Positions 407 to 45,311 of a stretch of DNA of 64,000 nt are shown here, in pieces. The translations under genes and the position numbers were made by a program. Positions within the stretch are counted from its first letter, which is position 1. Each line of letters starts with the position of its first letter. A model generated the notes under the pieces. It worked only from the letters and a program-made list of their open reading frames with translations, ran no database searches and had not been told where the DNA came from. Source of the DNA: Escherichia coli (GTDB lineage: Bacteria > Pseudomonadota > Gammaproteobacteria > Enterobacterales > Enterobacteriaceae); the NCBI RefSeq assembly GCF_029227855.1, contig NZ_CP074356.1; one strand, written 5' to 3'.

Positions 407-430
407 ATGCGCCAGGATGCAGAGGTAATC

Positions 431-2830
431 ATGAAGCTAACCGATGCGGATAATGCCGCCGATGGCATTTTTTTCCCCGCCCTTGAGCAAAATATGATGG
501 GCGCGGTGTTAATTAACGAAAATGATGAAGTGATGTTTTTCAACCCCGCCGCAGAGAAGCTCTGGGGGTACAAACGTGAAGAAGTTATTGGCAATAACAT
601 TGATATGCTGATTCCGCGGGATTTGCGTCCCGCGCATCCTGAATACATCCGTCACAACCGTGAAGGCGGTAAAGCGCGCGTCGAGGGGATGAGTCGGGAG
701 CTGCAGCTGGAGAAAAAAGACGGCAGTAAAATCTGGACCCGTTTTGCGCTATCGAAAGTGAGCGCCGAGGGTAAAATTTATTACCTGGCGCTGGTACGGG
801 ATGCCAGCGTAGAAATGGCGCAAAAAGAACAGACCCGACAATTGATTATTGCCGTTGACCATCTCGACCGACCGGTGATTGTCCTCGATCCGGAACGCCA
901 TATTGTGCAGTGCAATCGCGCATTTACCGAAATGTTTGGTTACTGCATTAGCGAAGCCAGCGGTATGCAGCCCGATACACTCCTGAACATTCCTGAATTC
1001 CCTGCCGATAACCGCATTCGTTTACAACAGTTGCTATGGAAAACCGCCCGCGATCAGGATGAATTTCTGCTGTTGACGCGCACCGGTGAAAAAATCTGGA
1101 TTAAAGCCTCTATCAGCCCGGTTTATGACGTGCTCGCGCATCTGCAGAACCTGGTAATGACTTTCTCGGATATCACCGAAGAACGGCAAATCCGCCAGCT
1201 TGAAGGCAATATTCTCGCCGCCATGTGCAGCAGCCCGCCATTTCATGAAATGGGGGAAATCATTTGTCGTAACATCGAATCTGTACTCAACGAATCGCAT
1301 GTTTCGCTGTTCGCGCTGCGCAACGGGATGCCGATACACTGGGCGTCATCTTCGCACGGTACAGAAGTTCAAAATGCGCAAAGCTGGTCAGCGACCATTC
1401 GTCAGCGTGATGGCGCGCCGGCGGGGATCCTGCAAATTAAAACCTCGTCAGGAGCAGAAACCAGCGCCTTTATCGAACGCGTGGCAGATATCAGCCAGCA
1501 TATGGCCGCGCTGGCGCTGGAACAGGAAAAAAGCCGTCAGCATATTGAACAACTCATCCAATTTGATCCGATGACCGGTCTGCCAAATCGCAATAACCTG
1601 CACAATTACCTCGATGACCTGGTCGACAAAGCCGTCTCTCCGGTGGTGTATCTCATCGGTGTTGACCATATTCAGGATGTGATTGATAGCCTTGGCTATG
1701 CGTGGGCCGATCAGGCATTGCTGGAAGTGGTCAATCGCTTTCGTGAAAAACTCAAACCGGATCAGTATCTCTGTCGTATCGAAGGTACGCCGTTTGTCCT
1801 CGTGAGCCTGGAAAACGACGTCAGTAACATAACCCAAATCGCCGATGAGCTACGGAATGTGGTCAGCAAGCCGATAATGATTGACGATAAACCATTCCCG
1901 CTCACCTTGAGCATTGGCATCAGCTACGACGTGGGTAAAAACCGCGATTACCTGCTCTCCACTGCTCACAATGCAATGGATTATATTCGCAAGAATGGCG
2001 GTAACGGCTGGCAGTTCTTCAGCCCGGCGATGAACGAAATGGTAAAAGAGCGTTTGGTTTTAGGCGCAGCGCTGAAAGAAGCGATTAGCAATAACCAACT
2101 GAAACTGGTTTACCAGCCACAAATCTTCGCAGAAACGGGTGAACTGTACGGCATCGAAGCCCTTGCTCGCTGGCACGATCCCCTGCATGGTCATGTGCCC
2201 CCTTCACGGTTTATTCCTCTCGCAGAAGAGATCGGTGAAATCGAAAATATTGGGCGCTGGGTCATCGCGGAAGCTTGCCGTCAGTTAGCAGAATGGCGTA
2301 GCCAGAATATTCATATCCCGGCGTTATCCGTTAACTTGTCAGCGCTGCACTTTCGCAGTAATCAACTGCCTAATCAGGTGTCTGATGCAATGCACGCCTG
2401 GGGTATTGACGGCCACCAGCTGACGGTGGAAATCACGGAAAGCATGATGATGGAACACGATACCGAAATCTTTAAGCGCATTCAGATCCTGCGCGATATG
2501 GGCGTGGGTTTATCGGTAGATGATTTTGGCACGGGCTTTTCCGGATTATCCCGCTTAGTCAGTCTTCCAGTAACGGAAATCAAAATTGACAAAAGTTTTG
2601 TCGATCGTTGTCTGACCGAAAAACGCATCCTTGCCTTACTTGAAGCCATTACCAGCATTGGGCAAAGCCTTAATTTAACCGTCGTGGCGGAAGGCGTCGA
2701 AACCAAAGAGCAATTTGAGATGCTACGCAAGATCCACTGTCGCGTTATTCAGGGATATTTCTTTTCCCGCCCCCTGCCCGCCGAAGAAATTCCAGGCTGG
2801 ATGAGCAGTGTGTTACCGCTGAAAATCTGA
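431..2830 (+). CDS. dosP: Oxygen-sensing c-di-GMP phosphodiesterase DosP (PAS-GGDEF-EAL)
   Basis: 799-codon ORF from MKLTDADNAADG; EAL-domain motifs near the C-terminus; synteny with dosC and ddpX. Confidence 0.9.
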   Translation: MKLTDADNAADGIFFPALEQNMMGAVLINENDEVMFFNPAAEKLWGYKREEVIGNNIDMLIPRDLRPAHPEYIRHNREGGKARVEGMSRELQLEKKDGSKIWTRFALSKVSAEGKIYYLALVRDASVEMAQKEQTRQLIIAVDHLDRPVIVLDPERHIVQCNRAFTEMFGYCISEASGMQPDTLLNIPEFPADNRIRLQQLLWKTARDQDEFLLLTRTGEKIWIKASISPVYDVLAHLQNLVMTFSDITEERQIRQLEGNILAAMCSSPPFHEMGEIICRNIESVLNESHVSLFALRNGMPIHWASSSHGTEVQNAQSWSATIRQRDGAPAGILQIKTSSGAETSAFIERVADISQHMAALALEQEKSRQHIEQLIQFDPMTGLPNRNNLHNYLDDLVDKAVSPVVYLIGVDHIQDVIDSLGYAWADQALLEVVNRFREKLKPDQYLCRIEGTPFVLVSLENDVSNITQIADELRNVVSKPIMIDDKPFPLTLSIGISYDVGKNRDYLLSTAHNAMDYIRKNGGNGWQFFSPAMNEMVKERLVLGAALKEAISNNQLKLVYQPQIFAETGELYGIEALARWHDPLHGHVPPSRFIPLAEEIGEIENIGRWVIAEACRQLAEWRSQNIHIPALSVNLSALHFRSNQLPNQVSDAMHAWGIDGHQLTVEITESMMMEHDTEIFKRIQILRDMGVGLSVDDFGTGFSGLSRLVSLPVTEIKIDKSFVDRCLTEKRILALLEAITSIGQSLNLTVVAEGVETKEQFEMLRKIHCRVIQGYFFSRPLPAEEIPGWMSSVLPLKI

Positions 2831-35180: not shown

Positions 35181-35750
35181 GTGAGCCAATTCATTCCCGT
35201 CGAATTACACCATGCCAGCCGTCTGTTAAATCATGGCCCAACTGTCATGATCACCAGTTTCGATGAGCAATCCCAGCGGCGTAACATTATGGCAGCAGCC
35301 TGGTCAATGCCGGTGGAGTTTGAACCGCCACGCGTGGCGATTGTGGTAGATAAATCGACATGGACCAGGGAGTTGATTGAACGTAATGGTAAGTTTGGCA
35401 TCGTTATCCCGGGTGTTGCAGCAACTAACTGGACGTGGGCGGTGGGAAGTGTGTCGGGGCGTGATGAAGATAAGTTTAATTGCTATGGTATTCCGGTTGT
35501 GAAAGGTCCGGTGCTTGGTTTGCCGCTGGTCGAGGAAAAATGTCTGGCGTGGATGGAGTGTCGCCTGCTACCTGCAACTTCCGCGCAAGAAAAATACGAT
35601 ACGCTATTTGGCGAAGTGGTATCTGCAGCGGCAGACGCACGAGTATTTGTCGAAGGCCGCTGGCAGTTTGATGATGACAAACTCAATACGTTGCATCATT
35701 TAGGTGCTGGCACGTTTGTTACCAGCGGCAAGCGTGTTACGGCAGGTTAA
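35181..35750 (+). CDS. yddH: Flavin reductase-like domain protein
   Basis: 189 aa; synteny with nhoA and pptA. Confidence 0.8.
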   Translation: MSQFIPVELHHASRLLNHGPTVMITSFDEQSQRRNIMAAAWSMPVEFEPPRVAIVVDKSTWTRELIERNGKFGIVIPGVAATNWTWAVGSVSGRDEDKFNCYGIPVVKGPVLGLPLVEEKCLAWMECRLLPATSAQEKYDTLFGEVVSAAADARVFVEGRWQFDDDKLNTLHHLGAGTFVTSGKRVTAG

Positions 35751-35753
35751 GCA

Positions 35754-35984
35754 TTACATGCTGTAACCGGGTTTCTTTATCAAAGCCTCCATTTGGGGCT
35801 CGATTTCGGCATCCCAGATAGCTTGCCAAGATTCTGGTTGAATCTGCTGTAGAGAAATGCTTATCGAGCTATCTTTACTGTTCAGATGGCGAATAATAAC
35901 GTCGGTAATATCTGCAGCAAGTGCTGCTTTTTGTTGTTCGTCCAGTTCACGCGGAAAACATTTAATGTCTATGTGCGGCATGAT
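35754..35984 (-). CDS. pptA: Tautomerase PptA (4-oxalocrotonate tautomerase family)
   Basis: 76 aa from [13 protein letters not shown] with Pro at position 2 (catalytic Pro1 after Met removal). Confidence 0.8.
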
Positions 35985-36286
35985 TGTGCTCCTTTTGAAA
36001 GATGTCAGTAAAATTAACACACGTTGTGAATGTCGTGTGTCCGGTAATGCGTTTTTACGGCAATAATGCCTACTTGAAATTGTACATATTTGTACTACAC
36101 ACTTTTAAATAAAGCGCCAATGAAAACGTTAACTTGCAGAATATATTCTTCGCCAACATGCCATTAAGAAAACATCAAGTTCCCGGCTTGCCAATTTGTT
36201 AACGCCCATTATAGTTATTCTTGCCCTCACTAAAAATTTTCATCCGTAATTACCCCCAATAAAAATCCATTCTGGAGACGCTTAAG

Positions 36287-38263
36287 ATGCAGCTTAATCA
36301 TATCGTTAAAAGTCTGCTAATAACGGGATTATTCACCACCAGTTCTTTACCTCTCCTCGCGGCGGAAGCTCCTAAAGACGCCACCGCAGCCACGCAACAA
36401 GCAAACAATTTACTCTACAACCAGTTGCCGTTTGCCGATAACACTGACTTTACTGATGCCCATAAAGGTTTTATTGCCCCTATCCCTCAAGACGTGATTA
36501 AGGGCGAACAAGGGAATGTTATCTGGGATCCACAACATTACGCTTTTATCAAAGAAGGCGATAAAGCCCCTGATACGGTGAATCCGAGTTTATGGCGTCA
36601 GGCGCAACTGATAAATATCAGCGGGTTATTCGAAGTAACTGAAGGTGTCTATCAGATTCGCAATCTCGATCTATCAAATATGACCATCATTGAAGGCAAA
36701 GAGGGTATTACCGTCGTTGATCCCCTTGTTTCAGCAGAAACAGCCAAAGTGGGTATGGATCTCTATTACAAAAATCGCGGCAAAAAACCGGTAGTGGCGG
36801 TTATCTATACACACAGTCATGTCGATCACTACGGTGGTGTTCGTGGCGTAATTGATGAAGCTGACGTTAAATCAGGCAAAGTTAAAATCTATGCGCCAGC
36901 CGGATTTTTGGAGGAAGCCGTTTCCGAAAACATCATGGCTGGCAATGTTATGAGCCGACGAGCCAGTTATATGTATGGCAACTTATTGAAACCTGATGTT
37001 AAAGGCCAGGTGGGGGCTGGACTGGGAACGACTACTTCAGCAGGAACAGTCACGTTGATTGCTCCTACTAACTACATCACCAAAACCGGACAAAAAGAAA
37101 CTATTGACGGGTTGACTTATGATTTCCTGATGGCGCCAGGTTCTGAAGCGCCTTCTGAAATGCTGTGGTTTATTGAAGAAAAGAAACTGATCGAAACCGC
37201 TGAAGATGTCACGCACACCCTTCATAACACCTATTCGCTGCGTGGGGCTAAAATTCGCCAACCGCTGCCGTGGTCAAAATATATTAATGAAGCTCTCAAT
37301 TTGTGGGGTGATAAAGCCGAGATTATTCTCGCTCAACATCACTGGCCAACCTGGGGCAACGATAACGTGGTCAAACTGCTTAAAAGCCAGCGTGATTTGT
37401 ATCGTTACATCAATGATCAAACTCTGCGCATGGCTAATCAAGGGATGACCCGTGATGAAATTGCCGCAAACTTTAAACTGCCCTCTTCACTGGCTAACAC
37501 CTGGGCGAATCGCGGCTATTACGGTTCGGTAAGTCATGACGTGAAAGCAACTTACGTGCTTTATCTCGGCTGGTTTGATGGTAACCCCGCGACGCTTGAT
37601 GAACTGCCGCCAGAAGAAGGCGCAAAAAAATTCGTCGAGTATATGGGCGGTGCTGATGCCATTTTACAGAAAGCCAAACAGGATTATGACCAGGGTAATT
37701 TCCGCTGGGTTGCCCAAGTTGTTAGTAAGGTGGTGTTTGCCGATCCAAACAACCAGGCAGCGAGAGATCTGGAAGCTGATGCGCTTGAGCAGTTAGGCTA
37801 TCAGGCTGAATCTGGGCCGTGGCGTAATTTCTATCTCACTGGTGCACAGGAATTGCGTAATGGCGTACAAAAATTACCAACACCAAATACTGCCAGCCCA
37901 GACACCGTGCGTGCGATGACGCCGGAGATGTTCTTTGATTATCTTGCCGTCCATATTAATGGTGAGAAAGCGGCAGATGCCAAAACCGTGTTGAATTTCG
38001 ATTTTGGTGAAGATGGCGGCACCTATAAAGTGGAGCTTGAAAATGGTGTTCTCAATCATACCGCTGGTGTAGAGGCTTCGGATGCTGATGCCACTATCAC
38101 TCTGTCTCGTGATGTATTGAACAAAATTGTACTGAAAGAAGAGACGCTGAAAGAAGCCACGGCCAAAGGAGATGTCAAAATTACTGGCAATGAGGAAAAA
38201 CTCAACGAGCTGTTAGGTTATATGGATAATTTTGAATTTTGGTTCAATATAGTGACACCATAA
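36287..38263 (+). CDS. Secreted MBL-fold alkyl/aryl-sulfatase-like protein (SdsA1/YjcS-like), accessory
   Basis: 658 aa; signal peptide; metallo-beta-lactamase zinc motif YTHSHVDHYGG; family assignment by recalled similarity. Confidence 0.55.
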   Translation: MQLNHIVKSLLITGLFTTSSLPLLAAEAPKDATAATQQANNLLYNQLPFADNTDFTDAHKGFIAPIPQDVIKGEQGNVIWDPQHYAFIKEGDKAPDTVNPSLWRQAQLINISGLFEVTEGVYQIRNLDLSNMTIIEGKEGITVVDPLVSAETAKVGMDLYYKNRGKKPVVAVIYTHSHVDHYGGVRGVIDEADVKSGKVKIYAPAGFLEEAVSENIMAGNVMSRRASYMYGNLLKPDVKGQVGAGLGTTTSAGTVTLIAPTNYITKTGQKETIDGLTYDFLMAPGSEAPSEMLWFIEEKKLIETAEDVTHTLHNTYSLRGAKIRQPLPWSKYINEALNLWGDKAEIILAQHHWPTWGNDNVVKLLKSQRDLYRYINDQTLRMANQGMTRDEIAANFKLPSSLANTWANRGYYGSVSHDVKATYVLYLGWFDGNPATLDELPPEEGAKKFVEYMGGADAILQKAKQDYDQGNFRWVAQVVSKVVFADPNNQAARDLEADALEQLGYQAESGPWRNFYLTGAQELRNGVQKLPTPNTASPDTVRAMTPEMFFDYLAVHINGEKAADAKTVLNFDFGEDGGTYKVELENGVLNHTAGVEASDADATITLSRDVLNKIVLKEETLKEATAKGDVKITGNEEKLNELLGYMDNFEFWFNIVTP

Positions 38264-38309
38264 ATTTACTGCATACCGGGCAGGTATCCTGCCCTTTTTT
38301 GGTTAAAAA

Positions 38310-39407
38310 ATGGCTGAACGAAGAAAAACTCATCACTCATGGAAAACCCGCCGCAATATGGTTATTCGCGGCATGACGATTAGTTTGCCATGGTTTGCTT
38401 TTATCAATGTCAGTTTTGCATTGATAATTTTGCTGCGCCGTGTTCTGTTTAATGACCTTACTCCACCCTGGTTAAATGAAAAAAGCCTTATACATTCTAT
38501 TGATATATCTGCAACGGGTATTCTGCTGATTTGCAGTGGTTTACTACTCATCCCTCGGCAAAAAACATTACCTATCCAGGTGCTATTAGTTGCCCTGAGC
38601 CTGCTATGGTCATGGTGTAGTTATCACTTTATTGCGTACTGGACGCTGCAGTTTGCTTATCCACTATGTGTATTATTAATGCTTAGTGGCGTTGTCGCAA
38701 TTTATTTCCATACCCCATCATTGCTCGCATTTGTCATTCCCTTATGGTTCACCACTCCAATAGCGAGTCTTATGCTTAATCAACAGATCAATATTCATTT
38801 TGCTGTTGTATGGTGTATTTTTTCACTGGCGCTATATGGTGGGCGACTCATTTTGTTACGTTGGTTTGAAGAAGCATGGGTACAAAACAGTTATAACAAC
38901 CAGTTAATTAATCGCCTTGATGCATTAGCACATCGTGCTCCTTTAACTGGGATAGCAAACCGACGTGCAATGAACAGTATCTTACACGACACGATGGATA
39001 ACGGCGGGTCATTTGCTCTTATTATGCTGGATGTCGATTTTTTTAAACGTTACAACGACACTTACGGGCATCCTGCTGGGGATCGTTGTCTAATACAAGT
39101 TGCCGACGCTCTACAGCGTTCAACTCGCCAGTCGGAGGATGTTGTTGTCCGTTATGGTGGCGAAGAGTTTGCCATCATACTTTTTAATGCAACATTGCCG
39201 GAAGCAGAGACGGTAGCAGCCAGAGTGAAGCAAGAACTTAAACTGGCAGCTATCCCACATCAGGCATCTGCTGTTAATGCATTCGTTACGGTTAGTCAGG
39301 GGATTACCTGTTCTGCTCCCGCAAAAACGGCTGAACAAATTATTTCAGATGCCGACGCTGCGTTATACCGGGCGAAAGAAAGTGGGCGAAATCGATGGGC
39401 TTTATAA
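38310..39407 (+). CDS. Membrane-anchored diguanylate cyclase (N-terminal multi-TM domain + GGDEF), accessory; start codon uncertain
   Basis: About 200 aa hydrophobic N-terminal half then GGDEF domain with RYGGEEF active site; the residue at the I-site Arg position is Gln (QSED). Confidence 0.65.
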   Translation: MAERRKTHHSWKTRRNMVIRGMTISLPWFAFINVSFALIILLRRVLFNDLTPPWLNEKSLIHSIDISATGILLICSGLLLIPRQKTLPIQVLLVALSLLWSWCSYHFIAYWTLQFAYPLCVLLMLSGVVAIYFHTPSLLAFVIPLWFTTPIASLMLNQQINIHFAVVWCIFSLALYGGRLILLRWFEEAWVQNSYNNQLINRLDALAHRAPLTGIANRRAMNSILHDTMDNGGSFALIMLDVDFFKRYNDTYGHPAGDRCLIQVADALQRSTRQSEDVVVRYGGEEFAIILFNATLPEAETVAARVKQELKLAAIPHQASAVNAFVTVSQGITCSAPAKTAEQIISDADAALYRAKESGRNRWAL

Positions 39408-39480
39408 GCATTAGGGGACTGGACAGATTACGTCTCTCCTCGCTTAACAAGGGCTGACGGAGGGTAATAATTGTCTATAG

Positions 39481-40032
39481 CTATCTTCTTAGCGATGTCT
39501 TTCTGGTATCACATTGGGTCGGTGCAATTATTTTTCCTTTAATACCCATTATGTTAAGAAATTCAGAAACAGCTGTAATCTCATTGTTTTTTTCATTCGT
39601 CTTGATCTTCCAAGGAATCTGACTGTGCATTATTGAGAACACACTAATAACGTGAATCGCTCCCTTGCGACGACTCTTGTCATAAGAGTACCGGAGCGTT
39701 TTTCCATCAATTGCAATGACGTCTTTATCATCTGAAGAATGGCAGTCAAGCATCCAGTTAATAAAGCACTCATGAAATTTTTCAGGACTGATACAGGATA
39801 CAACTCTGGCAATGGTATCGTGAACAGGAATACCATTATCAAAATCACCATATTGCTTCAAAAAATCGAGATGTGTTTCCCCAAAATCCTCTATATCTTC
39901 CCAGCCTTCTGCACCCGAAATAATGGCACAAATAGTCAACAGTAGAATATCCGATAATTTATGTTCCACTTTCCAGGCTTGTCTGTAATCGGGGGTAATA
40001 GAAATATGTTCCATCAATTTTTTAAATTCCAT
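39481..40032 (-). pseudogene. H-repeat-associated (ISAs1-family) transposase, N-terminal fragment (183 codons), truncated at its junction with the cyclase island
   Basis: Near-identical over about 170 aa to the N-terminus of the full-length H-rpt ORF at 46075..47211, then diverges into a short unrelated tail. Confidence 0.7.
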
Positions 40033-40160
40033 TTTGTTCTCCTTAATTATGTAAGGAGTATTTGATCATGTATAAGCAATAAAAAACAGCTTTAGGTAAT
40101 GAGGAATATCTCAATTTTTAAACATAAAATGCGAATTATTTAGTACAAAAAAGCAGCGTT
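39481..40160 (-). repeat. Direct repeat copy A (H-rpt 5' region plus N-terminal coding part), paired with 46660..47340
   Basis: Matching strings include ccattttgttctccttaattatgtaaggagtatttgatcatgta and ctcaatttttaaacataaaatgcgaattatttagtacaaaaa. Confidence 0.6.
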
Positions 40161-40617
40161 ACGTGATCTTTCCGTGGATCGTCAAATTGTTCGAGAGAAA
40201 ATACCAACATGATGGATTTTACTGTAAAAGTAATGTCGTAGTTTAAAAACTCATCATCCGGTAAAGCCTTGTGGGGCGTGGGCTTTCATACTTTTACCCT
40301 GATGTCTGCTATACGCCGGACACCCTTTACGTAGCATTCGGAATTCACCCGTAAATTTATCACGGCGGTATCACGAAACCTCCGGTTCTGATGCCGCTTA
40401 GGACTAACGACACGTCAACACAGGTTCGGGTTTATTCATTTCACTGTATCTCATATAATCTGAGCACTCCCCCTGCGCTCGCTACTATGACTCTTTACCA
40501 CAGCAACCGGGGTTGTTTGGGATCGGCTTTCAACAGCAGATCCCGGTGGCTATTGCAAGTAAGTCTACTTTCCACATCAGTGTTACTGACACAGAAAATA
40601 ATGAGTTATGATCCTTG

Positions 40618-41103
40618 TCATATTTTTAATATAGCCCCATGAGCTATAGGATCAAAACCTTCTAACCATGAGGTGTTTTTATCGAATAATGCACCTGTTA
40701 TATTTATATCGCCATATCTATCACATAATAAATTAGCGCCACATAAGTCAGCACCAGAAAAATTTGAATCTTTAACGTCTGCATTGCAAAAGGTTGAATT
40801 AGTTAATATAGCACCCTCAAAGTTTGCACCTATTGACCTTGAATTACTAAAGTCACTTCCAGTGAAATCTGAGTTATTAAGAATAGCGTTCATCAGAGCC
40901 GCATTGCGAAAGACAGCATTTCTAGTTGATGTATGTTGAATCATTACATTTCTTAAATGGGAATTTTCAAATTTCGCCCCATCAAGACAATAACCATTGA
41001 GGATGGCACGATGTAGATCCATCCCGCTAAAATCATATCCAGCAAGAGTGGTACTATCTATATCAAGAAATTTATTGGTTATTAAAAACGCGATTCTTAT
41101 CAT
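40618..41103 (-). CDS. Pentapeptide-repeat protein, putative immunity protein for the rhs2 C-terminal toxin
   Basis: 161 aa with about 20 tandem pentapeptide repeats ([25 protein letters not shown] ... [10 protein letters not shown]); start overlaps the rhs2 stop as ATGA. Confidence 0.6.
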
Positions 41104-44100
41104 CTATTCCCCCAATCATCTAACTCCGGAAAAATTTGGCTAAACGGATATAGTGGTGCCGATAATGGACGCGTACCTGGCCGCTCAGGAGGAAGTTTAT
41201 CACATAACAGACCCGCAACCATCCTGTGATTACCATTAACAATCACATTCCCATCCATATCAACCGGTGGTGCTCCACTACCATCTTCCAGCATTTGTAC
41301 GTAGTGAGCTACTACGGGTACTGAGACTTTTTGTTGTACTGTCAACAAGGGACTGTTGGCCACAACCATCCTGATGTTTTCAGGTGTCGCAGGTAAACAT
41401 TTAGTCTTCTCTTGACTAAAGGTATCATCCCACAATTTTGTTAAACCCATCACTGCCTGTTGTCTGTATTTATCCATGGGGTCAGCAATCAACCAAGATG
41501 GACCTGACTGCTCTATGGAATCTTCTCCGGAGAGACCCAACGGATCTATCTTAGTAGTTGGATTCAATGGATACTGATACAGGTTCCATGCACCTCTTAG
41601 CCCAATGGGATCCTGGGTGATATACCGCCCCTGCAACGGGTCATAGTACCGGTTGCGGTTATAGTACAGCCCCGACTCCTCATCATACTGCTGCCCCGGC
41701 AGACGGTACGGCTGTTGCAGTTGCTGCGCGCTGGTTTCGCCCAGCAGGTTTCCCCACTCGTCATACTCCCCCTGCCACGCCGTTTCCCCTACCGGGCTGA
41801 TGAGCGCCTGCGGCAGCCCCCGGTGGTCGCAGTGGTAAAGATGAAGTGTCCTCTCCGGGATGTATTCCGCCTCCATCTGGTTTTTCATCTGTTCCGCCGT
41901 CAGCCCGCACTGCTGAAGCCATGCCTCACTCTCCGCACTCACCGCACCCGCGCGCAGTTCCCGCTCCAGCCTCCCCAGCATCACCGACAGCTCCGCCGGT
42001 AGCGTCACCCCCGTGTCCTCCTGCAACACCTCCGCCAGACTCCGGTGCCGCGCCTTCGCCTGTTCACCATTCTCTGTTTCGATTCTGATGAGCGGCGTGA
42101 AGCTCCCCGGCTGGTATACCGTCTGGATACGCGTGGTGCCGGTCTGTACCGTCGTCAGCCTGTCACCGTCCCACCCGTACCAGGTCTCCTCCGGTTTACG
42201 CGACAGCGACATCCACCCCGTCAGGTCACGCTCCCGCCGCCACACCCGTTTCCCCGTCCGGCGGCCCAGCGGGTCATAGAGGTAGCGGCTCTCCACCTGT
42301 GGTTCGCCGTGCTGTATCCGCGTGTAGAACACCAGGCGGTGCTGGCTGTCGTAATGGTAGTGGTGGGTCCGCTCGTCGTGCATCCGGATAACCCCTTCCG
42401 GGATACGATCCGTCTTCTCCGCCAGCCTGCCGTATTCATCGTGGCGGTAGACATAGTGCGCATCCTCCGCGATGCGGTTATCCGGCCACGCCGTGAAGGT
42501 GCTGTCCGGGTGCAGTTCCGGGTCCGGCAGCCGGTTTCCTGCCGGGTCCGTCGCATACGGGATATCGATATCCAGGTTCGCCGCCGTGGTGTGAACGCCC
42601 GTCAGTCTTCCCGTGTCGCTGTAACGGTACTTCCGGCTCTCCTGCGGGCCGCTGATGCGCACCAGTTGCCCGTTATCGTTCCACGTATACTCACGGTCAA
42701 GCTGCGGAAGGTTCAGGTGCCTGCTCCGGAGCTGCCCTGTGAGGGTGTACGCCATGGCCTGTTCGTACCCCGCTGTACTGCCCGCCCCGCCGAAGCTGCG
42801 GGCCGTCTCACGGTGCAGCCGGTCCCGCGTGTACTCGACCAGCGGCGTTCCGCCCAGCTTCATCCCCGCAAGATAACCGCTGCCATACGTCAGCCACTCC
42901 ACCGGCGGCAGACCGTCCGGCTCCTGACGGGTCGCCAGCCCCTGTTCGCTGTAGACGTGCCTCGTCTCATGCTCCCACAGCATCTCCCCCGTCTCCTGGT
43001 TCTCCACCGTCTGCCGTTCGCCCGTCAGGCGGCCTTTATCGTCATAGCCGTAGTGGACCGCCACACGGTGGCCTTCGCTCAGGTGGCTGATTTCTGTCAG
43101 CCAGCCGTGGTCGTCATACTGCCACTGCTCCGCCGGGTCGCCGTTCACCGTCCGGTGCGTGATGCGCCCGGCGTCATCGTAGTACCACTGCGTGACCTGC
43201 CCCTCATCCTCGCTGCGGATGAGCTGCCCTGTGGCGCTGTACCGGTAACGCTGTGTCCTGCCGTCAAAGCCGCGCTGCTCCGTCAGCCTGTCCACCGGGT
43301 CATACCGGAACGTGGACTGGCTGCCGTTCTCGTTGGTCAGCACGGTGATGCGCCCGGCGGCGTCATACTCCATGCTGCGCGTCAGTCCGCCCTGCGTGGT
43401 GCTGACGGCCTTTCCCCACGCATCATACTGTGTCTCACTCCGGCTGCCGTTCGGGGCAATGATAGCGGTGAGGTCGCCTGCGGCGCTGTACTCATAACGG
43501 GTTTCACGTCCCTGCGCATCCTTCTGACTGACCAGTTGACCACGCGGGTTATAACTGCTGTAAGTGCTGATGCCTTCCTCCCGGTGAACCGCCGTCCTCT
43601 GACCGTACCGGTCGTATTCATACCGCGTCGTGTACCCTGAACAGTCCGTAAATGCCTGAAGCTGACCGTACCGGTTTCGCGTTATTCTCCGCCTCACCCC
43701 GGTTCCGTCTTCCACCGCACAGGGCAGGCCACTGCGGGAAGAATCATAAAACCAGCGCGTAATGTTACCGTTGCGCGAGACCTCTTCCGCCAGCCTGCCC
43801 TGACGGTCATATTTCCGGCTGCGGCGCAGCCCGTCCGGGTACGTCACTGACGTCAGTTGCAACTGGTTGTTGTAACCATACCGTACCGTCCTGCCGTCCG
43901 GCAGTATCACTGAAGTCAGCTTTCCCGACGCCATATGCAGCCGGTACTCCGTCCGCCGTCCCGCCGCATCCGTCTGCGCCTTCAGCCTCCCCGCCTCATC
44001 ATACTCGCTGCGGGTGATGCTCCCGTCCCCATGCTCCTTCTTCACCACCCGCTTCAGGCCGCCCTCGCCCTCCGTGTACAGCACCTCCCGCCGGTTCAGG

Positions 44101-45311
44101 CTGTCCGTGATGGTCACGCGGTCCTGCCCGTACTCAAAGCGGTAGTCCAGCCCCTCCGGGTTGACCTGCTCCGTCACCCGACCGGTATCATCATACCGGT
44201 AGCGGCTCTCCGGCCTCCCCGCATAATGGTGCGCCACCATCCGCCCGGCGTGCTCCGCATCATAAGTAAACCCGCGCACCTGCGTCCCGCTGCGGTCATA
44301 CACCGCCCGCAGTTCTCCGCTGGCCGTGTACGTGTAGCGCGCCAGCGGCGCAGTCGGCAGTTCATCCAGGTATGCCAGGTCGTGTGTCAGCCATACCGCC
44401 TCCAGCCGGATACCGTTATCGGCACCGTACTCTGTACCGGTGGGCAGCGTGTCGGGGAAAACCTGAGAAGAGGAAACAGAACGGGGACTGGCCGGAGAAG
44501 ATAAAGAAGAGGCGCGCTGTTTACGGAAGGCTTTCGCCCGCTGCGCCTGTGTGGTCAGCGCCAGATGAAAACGGCGGCCCGCGCCGTCCGTCACCCCCGT
44601 CACCGCGCCCGCCGCTTCCCCCTCTGCCGCCCGGTGGAAGGCCAGCGTCCGCCCGAAGCTGTCCACCACGCCCGTCAGCACCCGGTATGCGGGCGGCTCC
44701 GGCGGCAGCACCTCGTCCGCCTCCGGCACCCGCTCCGGCCAGCCGAGTATCCACCACGGCCCCTGAAGGCTGTTTGTCGCCAGGTACACATGCGGGCTTA
44801 AGCGGAGACTCTCCGGCAGCACCTGCCAGAGCGCGCTTAGCGGCTGCGAACTGTGCTGCTCCGCCACCCCGCCCCTTGCCAGCCAGAACGACTCGCTGCG
44901 GCTGTAGCTTATCTCGCCGGGAAACAGCGGCTCAAAGTGAATGCTCCTGCCGCCACTGTCGTTGAGTATCAGTTCCCGCTCATGAACCTGTAAGCGGATA
45001 TCGAAGGGCGCTTTCCAGCCGGGACCAAACACCCCCACCGGCGCGGGTGTTCTGGTCCGGTAGCTGCTGTAGGCGCGGGAAAGAATAAACGGCAACGGGC
45101 CGGGCAGCGCAAGATCCGTCTCGCCCGGCAGCACCTTCGCACCCAGTAGCGGGTTCACCGGGTTACCCTTCTGCTCCTCCACCGGGCTGTTGGGACACAC
45201 CGAGCAGGCCACTCCCGTCGGCGCACCTATCAGCACCCCCGCTGAACCCTGCACAATATCCAGTCCCTTGCGGGTCATATCGCCCTGTCGCGCCGCCGGT
45301 TTTCCGCTCAT
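41100..45311 (-). CDS. Full-length Rhs polymorphic toxin (PAAR-like N-terminus, YD-repeat shell, DPxGL cleavage motif, unassigned C-terminal tip)
   Basis: 1403 aa intact ORF; N-terminus [12 protein letters not shown]..; many YD repeats; ...[16 protein letters not shown]...IDPLGL followed by about 145 aa of sequence unrelated to rhs1. Confidence 0.9.
41500..45311 (-). repeat. Rhs core, direct repeat with the rhs1 core at 48540..52088
   Basis: Long near-identical protein stretches between the two rhs ORFs (e.g. [54 protein letters not shown] in both), same strand. Confidence 0.7.

Follow-up and report, generated by a model that had tools for sequence, protein, structure and literature searches.

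The window analysed here, a stretch of 64,000 nucleotides from Escherichia coli, carries two neighbouring genes on its plus strand, one for an alkylsulfatase (36287..38263) and one for a MASE5-GGDEF diguanylate cyclase (DGC; 38310..39407), which lie between the backbone gene pptA and a large Rhs locus. This arrangement raises the question whether the pair is a recent, strain-specific acquisition or an old part of the chromosome that most E. coli have lost, and what the two products might do, separately or together. Both genes are ordinary, already annotated chromosomal genes, and their open reading frames and Pfam domains agree with an earlier note on this DNA, which had described the products as a secreted alkylsulfatase with an MBL motif and a membrane-bound GGDEF cyclase. 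The explanation that we find highly probable, when taken as a whole, is that they form an old backbone pair, subject to ISAs1-linked loss, and encode a sulfatase and a competent MASE5 cyclase.

Distribution and ancestry of the gene pair

When the pair was scored as present in genomes containing at least 80% of the segment 36021-39480, it was found in 438 of 5426 complete E. coli genomes (8%), about 92% being without it. The pair is thus accessory rather than universal in this species, as had been supposed, and K-12 lacks both genes, as the earlier note had also stated: in MG1655, pptA is followed by 99 bp, ydcC (H-repeat), yncI, ydcD and rhsE. Occurrence in only 8% of complete genomes, a G+C content of 40-47% across the pair versus about 52% in the flanks, and the adjoining mobile elements could all be taken in favour of a strain-specific, horizontally acquired module, whose cyclase would be the DgcX-like additional DGC reported for some pathogenic strains. 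We consider such an origin extremely improbable, because the genes hold the same position in sister species and in those E. coli in which no island separates the cyclase gene from yncG, because a remnant of the sulfatase gene is preserved at the ISAs1 junction of some pair-less genomes, because the genes are not found on E. coli plasmids, and because DgcX is a different protein.

The backbone flanks of the locus, pptA on the left (35754..35981) and yncG on the right (55370..55987), are both on the minus strand, and between the cyclase gene and yncG the window contains an inserted 16-kb ISAs1/Rhs/VgrG island (39400..55371), which is not part of the gene pair. Its limits follow from homology to the island-free E. 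coli FDAARGOS_1268, which ends at 39399 and restarts at 55372, at the yncG stop codon. The island comprises an ISAs1-family remnant (39408-40173), an Rhs core gene (41100-45311), an ISAs1 element (45747-47211), a second Rhs gene (48310-52088) and VgrG (52155-54368), as well as a group II intron fragment, a pentapeptide-repeat gene and yncH. FDAARGOS_1268 has the order pptA, sulfatase, cyclase, yncG, ansP, free of Rhs and IS sequences, and in 87 E. coli genomes the cyclase gene and yncG are likewise joined directly, the island being absent; in island-free genomes yncG adjoins the cyclase stop codon directly. The same order was found in E. whittamii, in Escherichia sp. E1V33 and in two divergent GTDB 'E. 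coli' species representatives. A recent island should be absent, leaving an empty site, at the syntenic position in sister species; instead, the pair occupies this position in four other Escherichia lineages, and E. coli free of the Rhs island retain it. Across species, synonymous divergence of the sulfatase gene follows that of nhoA and yddH. A search of PLSDB did not find the E. coli gene in mobile form, the single E. coli match being a 4.9-Mb chromosome record filed as a plasmid, and the homologues otherwise found there reside on Pantoea and Rahnella megaplasmids (about 48% identity).

As judged from these comparisons of gene order, the pair is old backbone, to which the Rhs/ISAs1 island was added later. 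The two genes would belong to the Escherichia interval delimited by nhoA-yddH-pptA and yncG-ansP, a minority of E. coli having retained them and most lineages being devoid of them. Their low G+C content makes it possible that the pair was itself acquired, but if so, this happened before the diversification of Escherichia. Thus, neither the claim of the earlier note that the cyclase constitutes a strain-specific input, nor a reading of the pair as an insertion between pptA and the Rhs locus, can be upheld, and the polarity is the opposite. In K-12-like genomes the ISAs1 terminus (AGGG[C/A]AAGATTACG...) meets the position equivalent to 36070 of the window, and in another pair-less group the same terminus meets 36356, in codon 24 of the sulfatase gene. 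Some genomes without the pair therefore keep the sulfatase promoter and the first 23 codons fused to the ISAs1 end, which shows that in those genomes the genes were deleted. In at least some lineages, the loss would have proceeded by deletion beside the ISAs1 (H-repeat) end of the adjoining Rhs island. The order of events is a reconstruction, as the ISAs1 copy adjoining the cyclase gene in the window is a degraded variant, about 91% identical, and not the direct precursor of the K-12 arrangement.

A separate matter is the behaviour of the single genes. The arrangement is yddH, sulfatase, yncG in C. sedlakii, and yddH, cyclase, pptA, yncG in three Citrobacter spp., and these gene orders speak for the old age of the locus. 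On the other hand, E. albertii has the sulfatase gene only, and several Citrobacter have one of the two genes. The pair is thus not a strict unit, and we counted this against the explanation that we prefer.

The evolutionary reading of the locus is thereby turned around, K-12 and most E. coli representing the derived, deleted state. The locus would clearly exemplify how Rhs/H-repeat elements wear away the chromosomal backbone and, in doing so, trim the c-di-GMP network. Carrier and non-carrier genomes of E. coli offer natural isogenic contrasts.

The alkylsulfatase

The 658-aa product of the first gene gives Pfam matches to Lactamase_B (1e-16), Alkyl_sulf_dimr (PF14863, 1e-62) and Alkyl_sulf_C (PF14864, 3e-44). 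The motif THSHVDHYGG lies at residues 175-184 and includes the HxHxDH signature (HSHVDH, aa 176-181; 36812-36829). All seven zinc ligands are kept (H176, H178, D180, H181, E287, E306 and H351), among them the two family-specific glutamates, and they align to H192, H194, D196, H197, E303, E322 and H367 of SdsAP (PMC5426288). By its domains and zinc ligands, the protein is an MBL-fold type III alkylsulfatase. Its N-terminus, MQLNHIVKSLLITGLFTTSSLPLLAA followed by EAPK, resembles a Sec signal peptide (predicted for aa 1-25; 36287-36361), and the N-terminus of mature SdsAP aligns at residue 26; a Sec-exported, periplasmic type III enzyme of the SdsAP/SdsA1 kind, with a binuclear zinc site, may be assumed. 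A dN/dS ratio of 0.03-0.09 points to purifying selection.

Searches against sequences of solved structures gave the highest score to 7tl5 (1192 bits), the closest one to the sulfatase, which was deposited as a 'Lactamase_B domain-containing protein'. SdsAP of Pseudomonas sp. S9 (4nur, 1036 bits) aligns gap-free over 633 residues, and both this enzyme and SdsA1 of P. aeruginosa (2cfu) have the same layout of MBL, dimerisation and SCP2-like domains; they are secreted, as is predicted for the sulfatase, while the host of the latter is enterobacterial. The K-12 alkyl/aryl-sulfatase YjcS (4pdx) shares family and architecture, but with 702 bits versus the 1036-1192 bits of SdsAP and 7tl5 it is clearly a paralogue, and its gene is presumably at a different chromosomal locus. 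Two residues that SdsAP requires for activity towards SDS and that determine substrate preference, Y246 and G263, correspond to Y230 and G247 of the sulfatase (PMC5426288). From this conservation we infer an SDS-type activity: the two-zinc site would cleave primary alkyl sulfate esters, that is SDS-like amphiphiles, to a fatty alcohol and sulfate, and these compounds are presumably the substrates. The predicted role would be detoxification, or scavenging of sulfur or carbon.

The cyclase and its relation to DgcX

The start of the second gene assigned by RefSeq (38358) gives a protein of 349 aa. The 16-aa N-terminal extension that precedes it is open and encodes a peptide (SW.xR..MV) conserved in orthologues with identities as low as about 50%; for this reason the 365-aa form is probably the correct one. 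The MASE5 domain (PF17178; aa 25-206, 38382-38927) was matched at 4e-43 over model positions 2-192 of 192, and the GGDEF domain (aa 210-362, 38937-39395) at 3e-46 in Pfam and with 153 bits in NCBIfam. Given this nearly complete Pfam match, the cyclase is a MASE5 sensor-domain protein. Hydropathy and an AlphaFold model (pLDDT 84) both show six hydrophobic helices with periplasmic loops almost absent, the model consisting of six transmembrane helices, a stalk and the GGDEF domain. A Foldseek search against the PDB yielded no experimental structure of MASE5; the top match over the full length, ImcA of P. aeruginosa (8wcn), reached a TM-score of only 0.40. To our knowledge no MASE5 protein has been assigned a signal. 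With MASE5 as the sole input domain, embedded almost wholly in the membrane and connected through a long stalk helix to the GGDEF domain, the cyclase should convert a membrane-borne signal into c-di-GMP.

Degenerate GGDEF proteins do exist in E. coli, CdgI being an example (PMC5635695), and the protein might accordingly be enzymatically inactive, or act chiefly as a c-di-GMP receptor or scaffold. We regard this as very unlikely. The GGEEF motif (aa 283-287; 39156-39170) and the metal- and GTP-binding residues, which align with those of WspR and PleD, are invariant across 73 homologues (D241, K246, N249, D258, R281, GGEEF, K356 and R360), and a dN/dS of 0.18-0.22 is indicative of purifying selection. 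A receptor role is further disfavoured by the fact that receptors usually bind through the I-site, which is precisely the non-canonical part of the protein. A catalytically competent DGC thus remains the preferred reading. Five residues upstream of GG(D/E)EF, where an RxxD motif would be expected, the cyclase has QSED (within RQSED, 39126-39140), and alignment to WspR places Gln274 at the register of the RxxD arginine, exactly as the earlier note had remarked. The arginine one residue upstream (R273) is invariant, and among the 73 homologues the MASE5 family has R-x-x-x-D, not RxxD. The enzyme would therefore lack the canonical feedback site, and it is plausible that product inhibition has been lost.

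The suggestion that the cyclase is DgcX-like did not survive direct comparison. Authentic dgcX was recovered through published mutagenesis primers (PMC10459773 supplement), from which the wild-type sequence was reconstructed; an exact 41-nt match identified 88 of the 5426 genomes as DgcX-positive, while the published 40-nt knock-out primer had no match in them, probably owing to an OCR error or a strain-specific flank. DgcX (L014:2942-4270) is a 443-aa MASE4-GGDEF protein with an RKDD I-site, encoded amid prophage remnants (tail-fibre, recombinase), and it was portrayed alike by Richter et al. 2014, as an extra DGC of EAEC/O104:H4 adjacent to prophage (PMC4287979). What the two proteins share is that they are accessory in E. 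coli, absent from K-12, and anchored in the membrane, with a GGEEF cyclase domain. They differ in the sensor domain (MASE5 versus MASE4), in the I-site (QSED versus the intact RxxD of DgcX) and in location, dgcX occupying prophage-adjacent loci (attB, argW-dsdC), and their 32% identity is confined to the GGDEF domain. The window contains neither the dgcX start-primer sequence nor prophage genes near the cyclase gene. The cyclase is not DgcX, and this correction removes, together with the label, the implication of pathogen-specific biofilm signalling.

That the cyclase might be paralogous to one of the named K-12 DGCs was considered as well and dropped, as every NCBIfam equivalog scored under its cutoff. 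Since no model of a K-12 DGC matches it, the cyclase is probably DgcY. In the 2016 nomenclature of Hengge et al. and of Povolotsky and Hengge, in J Bacteriol 198, DgcY is reportedly a DGC of the E. coli pangenome that K-12 lacks, and MASE5 is said to have been defined in that 2016 work on E. coli GGDEF/EAL proteins. No source name in the protein cluster of the cyclase reads DgcY, and full-text literature searches for DgcY and MASE5 found no E. coli description.

Transcription and a possible functional link

The sulfatase gene is preceded by an intergenic region (36021..36286, plus strand) in which a consensus scan located a candidate sigma-70-like promoter, TTGCCA-16-TATAGT (36188-36215), and a GGAG Shine-Dalgarno sequence lies 9-12 nt 5' of the ATG. 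Fifteen nucleotides past the sulfatase stop codon an intrinsic-terminator-like hairpin begins (38278..38304, plus strand; GGGCAGG-TAT-CCTGCCC, then TTTTTTGG), which ends 6 nt ahead of the cyclase ATG. Across 4 genera, 9 orthologous loci have a hairpin at the equivalent position, with compensatory changes in 4 of its 7 pairs; in Leclercia it has no T-run. The sulfatase would thus be driven by its own promoter region and closed by a conserved terminator-like hairpin. The consensus scan revealed no sigma-70-like promoter for the cyclase gene, whose reading frame starts so close to the hairpin that a standard promoter does not fit. As this leaves no space, the cyclase gene is most likely transcribed either by read-through or from a promoter within the 3' end of the sulfatase gene. 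When 35700-40700 was scanned against Rfam, no RNA family was reported within or between the two genes, and hence no known riboswitch or attenuator there.

Adjacency of the two genes recurs outside E. coli. In a small sample of about 20 loci, sulfatase orthologues (85-88% aa identity) adjoin a MASE5-GGDEF gene (47-51%) in three chromosomal contexts and two orientations: sulfatase and cyclase genes in tandem between pptA and yncG in Escherichia, in tandem between tynA and feaB in Lelliottia, Pseudenterobacter and Leclercia, and divergent, between usp/emrE-like genes and ttcA, in Salmonella. This repeated pairing, a mildly new point, suggests a functional link, though it does not prove one. It also offers a candidate class of ligands for MASE5, namely alkyl sulfates or long-chain alcohols.

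SiaD of P. aeruginosa is among the best matches of the GGDEF domain; it is soluble and controlled by a phosphatase/kinase/partner switch, whereas the cyclase described here has a MASE5 membrane domain, and we know of no sulfatase gene adjacent to that of SiaD. In that bacterium, SDS induces c-di-GMP-dependent aggregation via SiaA/D, so that an alkyl-sulfate detergent is tied to the output of a DGC (PMC4768041). This is an analogy only, albeit a precedent for a functional module in which MASE5 would sense alkyl sulfates, or the fatty alcohol released from them, and raise c-di-GMP to promote matrix formation or aggregation on detergent exposure. The adjacency in three contexts and two orientations, and a sensor almost free of periplasmic loops, which fits a lipophilic signal, are consistent with it. 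However, either gene is also found alone, a terminator-like hairpin separates them, the sample is of about 20 loci, and our literature search found no paper connecting the two; we think such a module unlikely, if worth keeping in mind. Still more doubtful is its broader form, a sensory module conserved in Enterobacteriaceae, in which MASE5 would detect alkyl-sulfate amphiphiles or a fatty alcohol and signal through c-di-GMP with no canonical product inhibition. If true, it would represent a circuit leading from detergent or host sulfolipid to biofilm, no longer carried by most E. coli.

We lean slightly towards inherited synteny only, with the sulfatase scavenging sulfur or carbon and the cyclase answering an unrelated membrane cue. 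The transcription units look separate, loss of a single gene is frequent (the cyclase gene occurs without the sulfatase gene in E. cloacae, Hafnia, Pantoea and Citrobacter spp., and the reverse holds in E. albertii and C. sedlakii), and the evolutionary rates are very different, the sulfatases being 85-88% identical between the same genera versus about 50% for the cyclases. What such inheritance accounts for less readily is that the pair stays together through at least two relocations and one inversion. Proteins with the same MASE5-GGDEF architecture and about 50% identity to the cyclase are Enterobacter ludwigii EL-703 and DGC3134 of Pantoea sp. YR343, and the Pantoea and Hafnia copies have no adjoining sulfatase gene. 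For Pantoea DGC3134, promoter activity has been observed in biofilms as well as on roots (PMC7232144, PMC8294551).

Other genes of c-di-GMP turnover lie at the opposite end of the window, as had been noticed before: dosP is complete (407..2830; NCBIfam DosP equivalog, 1641 bits), and of dosC, the upstream GGDEF protein, just the last 129 aa fall inside the window.

Locus order and loss of the gene pair

The sulfatase and cyclase genes occupy 36287..38263 and 38310..39407 on the plus strand, between pptA and yncG, exactly where the earlier note had placed both reading frames. That note saw in them a strain-specific c-di-GMP input, at a place where K-12 runs straight from pptA to H-rpt/rhsE. The pair is indeed accessory in E. 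coli, as the segment bearing it was found in only 438 of 5426 complete genomes, always in a single, chromosomal copy; it is not, however, an insertion into the MG1655 arrangement (pptA, 99 bp, ydcC(H-rpt)–yncI–ydcD–rhsE–yncH–yncG), since the same locus order occurs in island-free E. coli and in other Escherichia. The apparent insertion is a retained ancestral state. The lone place of a 'plasmid' in the E. coli count is explained by NZ_CP134663.1 (PLSDB hit H64), a 4.9-Mb replicon filed among plasmids which is evidently a chromosome.

In the island-free genome FDAARGOS_1268 the order is narZYWV–yddE–nhoA–yddH–pptA–sulfatase–cyclase–yncG–ansP–yncE–pqqU–mcbR, with the stop codons of the cyclase gene and yncG adjacent and no Rhs or IS between them. 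This direct junction is common to 87 genomes, and the same order was observed in E. whittamii, in two divergent genomes that represent GTDB species and are labelled E. coli, and in Escherichia sp. E1V33, where the sulfatase gene is degraded. E. albertii bears the sulfatase gene only, homology to the window ending at 38311, just beyond the hairpin which follows that gene. The order is yddH–sulfatase–yncG in C. sedlakii and yddH–cyclase–pptA–yncG in three Citrobacter spp. At synonymous sites the sulfatase gene diverges by 0.18 from that of E. whittamii and by 0.8-0.9 from those of more distant Escherichia, values within the range of nhoA and yddH; its dN/dS is 0.03-0.09, and that of the cyclase gene 0.18-0.22. 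The low G+C content of the pair, 40-47%, suggests that if the pair was acquired, this happened before the genus arose.

Homology between the window and the island-free genome ends at 39399, eight bases 5' of the cyclase stop, and restarts at 55372, the yncG stop. The intervening 16 kb comprise an ISAs1 remnant, a group II intron fragment, a pentapeptide-repeat gene, two Rhs core genes, one more ISAs1 element, VgrG and yncH. In K-12-like genomes window position 36070 abuts the ISAs1 terminus AGGG[C/A]AAGATTACG, and in another pair-less group the same terminus lies at 36356, leaving the sulfatase promoter and the first 23 codons. Such junctions in some pair-less genomes are the mark of a pre-existing gene deleted next to an IS. 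An unannotated stub in E. coli CUVET21-1780 (L002 6305-6345) consists of the sulfatase promoter region and codons 1-23 fused to the ydcC (ISAs1) end; the pair was therefore deleted. About one tenth of the entries listed for the spread of the segment are of this type.

The two proteins and the comparison with DgcX

The 658-aa sulfatase consists of three Pfam domains, namely MBL, alkyl-sulfatase dimerisation (1e-62) and a C-terminal SCP2-like domain (3e-44). A PDB search gave gap-free alignments to 7tl5 (1192 bits) and to SdsAP, the SDS hydrolase of Pseudomonas sp. S9 (4nur, 1036 bits); matches to E. coli YjcS (4pdx, 702 bits), Pisa1 and SdsA1 were weaker. Because YjcS scores below the former two, the protein is a paralogue of K-12 yjcS and not its copy. 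All seven zinc ligands described for SdsAP (PMC5426288) are present in the gap-free register (H176, H178, D180, H181, E287, E306, H351), and so are Y230 and G247, the counterparts of two SdsAP residues at which mutation abolishes SDS hydrolysis (PMC5426288). The N-terminus is a predicted Sec-type signal peptide, and the alignment of mature SdsAP begins at residue 26.

The 365-aa cyclase combines MASE5 (4e-43) and GGDEF (3e-46) Pfam domains. Hydropathy and an AlphaFold model (pLDDT 84) agree on six membrane helices joined by very short loops; in the model the last helix runs on as a long stalk that enters the GGDEF domain. The GGEEF motif and every metal- and GTP-binding residue are invariant in 73 homologues, and none of the NCBIfam equivalogs of named E. 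coli DGCs reaches its cutoff. RefSeq/PGAP starts the protein at 38358, the second Met (349 aa), versus 38310 in the earlier note. The 16-residue extension is open and, in orthologues with as little as 50% identity, still conserved as a peptide; the longer frame is therefore probably right. The upstream 16-23 residues are conserved across genera as SW.xR..MV, and an in-frame stop lies just 5' of the first ATG; such a pattern suggests that many records systematically place the start too far downstream.

Alignment to WspR places Gln274 (RQSED-VVVRY-GGEEF) at the canonical RxxD Arg position, as had been claimed previously. R273 and D277 are invariant across the MASE5 family, giving R-x-x-x-D, so the canonical I-site register is absent from the family as a whole.

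DgcX, to which the earlier note likened the cyclase, was reported to have about 270 hydrophobic N-terminal residues and an intact I-site, and to be encoded beside lambdoid prophage DNA (Richter et al. 2014, PMC4287979); it is a MASE4-GGDEF protein with E359/E360 in its GGEEF motif (PMC10459773). We restored the published GGEEF mutagenesis primers to their wild-type sequence and searched for it in 5426 genomes, 88 of which contained it. One gene, extracted from the argW–dsdC region among phage remnants, encodes a 443-aa protein with MASE4 and GGDEF domains, starting with MIINKVPKK as predicted by the cloning primer. Its I-site register is RKDD, whereas the window cyclase has Gln274 at the Arg position, and the two align only across the GGDEF domain, at 32% identity. 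The proposed likeness was thus wrong. In the 2016 nomenclature, the MASE5 cyclase that E. coli carries outside K-12 is presumably 'DgcY'. Both genes are unremarkable and annotated, and belong to known families; what the earlier note observed is confirmed, and its interpretation is supported in part.

Expression and the recurring neighbourhood

Upstream of the sulfatase gene lie a candidate promoter, sigma-70-like, and a good Shine-Dalgarno sequence; the stop of the gene is followed by a GC-rich hairpin with a T-run, ending 6 nt before the cyclase ATG. Nine orthologous loci, drawn from four genera, have a hairpin at that place, and 4 of 7 pairs show compensatory changes; the Leclercia hairpin is devoid of the T-run. 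Between the hairpin and the cyclase start, a consensus scan found no promoter-like site and an Rfam scan found nothing. We infer from this layout that the cyclase would be expressed by read-through or from a promoter within the sulfatase gene.

The same sulfatase orthologue (85-88% aa identity) adjoins a MASE5-GGDEF gene (47-51%) at other loci. In Lelliottia, Pseudenterobacter and Leclercia the pair lies between tynA and feaB, and in Salmonella enterica GCA_007770585.1 (L098 3736-7128) it is divergent, with a shared 285-bp intergenic region, flanked by usp/emrE-like genes and ttcA–dbpA. With the Escherichia locus this makes three contexts and two orientations. A related Salmonella copy resides on the 263-kb plasmid CP074266.1.

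A membrane-buried sensor adjoining an amphiphile-handling enzyme invites the idea that the two form a module, in which MASE5 would sense alkyl sulfates or the released fatty alcohol. A precedent is known from P. aeruginosa, where SDS triggers aggregation dependent on c-di-GMP through SiaA/D (PMC4768041). A strict module is disfavoured by the occurrence of the cyclase alone in E. cloacae (there too between tynA and feaB), Hafnia, Pantoea, C. koseri and some Citrobacter, and of the sulfatase alone in E. albertii and C. sedlakii. We consider the sensing idea rather unlikely. Our literature search found no paper linking this sulfatase to a MASE5 cyclase. What is left is a modest lead, a class of candidate signals for MASE5, a domain still uncharacterised.

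The island and neighbouring loci

Within the island (39400..55371), a group II intron domain fragment lies between the ISAs1 remnant and the pentapeptide-repeat gene, matching group-II-D1D4-2 (Rfam RF01999) at 40442-40550 on the minus strand over the full model length (48 bits versus a gathering score of 36, E 1e-7). The pentapeptide-repeat gene (161 aa, 40618-41103, minus strand) overlaps by 4 nt the stop of an Rhs core gene (1403 aa, 41100-45311, minus strand); as Rhs immunity genes are usually found at this place, its product may be the immunity partner of the C-terminal toxin of that Rhs protein. At 45747-54368 follow another ISAs1 copy, a second Rhs core gene with about 74% identity to the first, and a VgrG gene, which together make up an orphan vgrG–rhs island that separates the cyclase gene from yncH/yncG. 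Both Rhs core genes are annotated as frameshifted in RefSeq, in the matching genome. Shorter versions in other E. coli contain VgrG only (CUVET21-1780) or ISAs1 elements only (AST215). The otherwise island-free FDAARGOS_1268 bears an IS621 (IS110 family) copy between yddE and nhoA (L095 4923-5903).

E. coli has two strikingly distinct forms of narV (32413-33093). That of the window is 97% identical in DNA to the AST215 allele and 99% in protein to that of the K-12-like AR_0019, but only about 84% (DNA) and 88-89% (aa) to those of FDAARGOS_1268 and other Escherichia; its protein is nevertheless 98% identical to NarV of Citrobacter sedlakii. A contig of a MAG labelled Citrobacter sp. (DXKH01000040.1), with 95-100% protein identity to the window and 100% for yddH, is probably an Escherichia contig mis-binned into that MAG.

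An ISAs1-like terminus, AGGGGACTGGACAGATTACG, lies directly 3' of the cyclase stop (39400-39440; also at the compared loci L011, L012, L015 and L018). The cyclase ends with RNRW-AL* in island-bearing genomes versus RNRW-EK* in island-free ones. E. whittamii and other Escherichia lineages share the AL* form together with this tail, and therefore the IS junction is old, or was moved by recombination.
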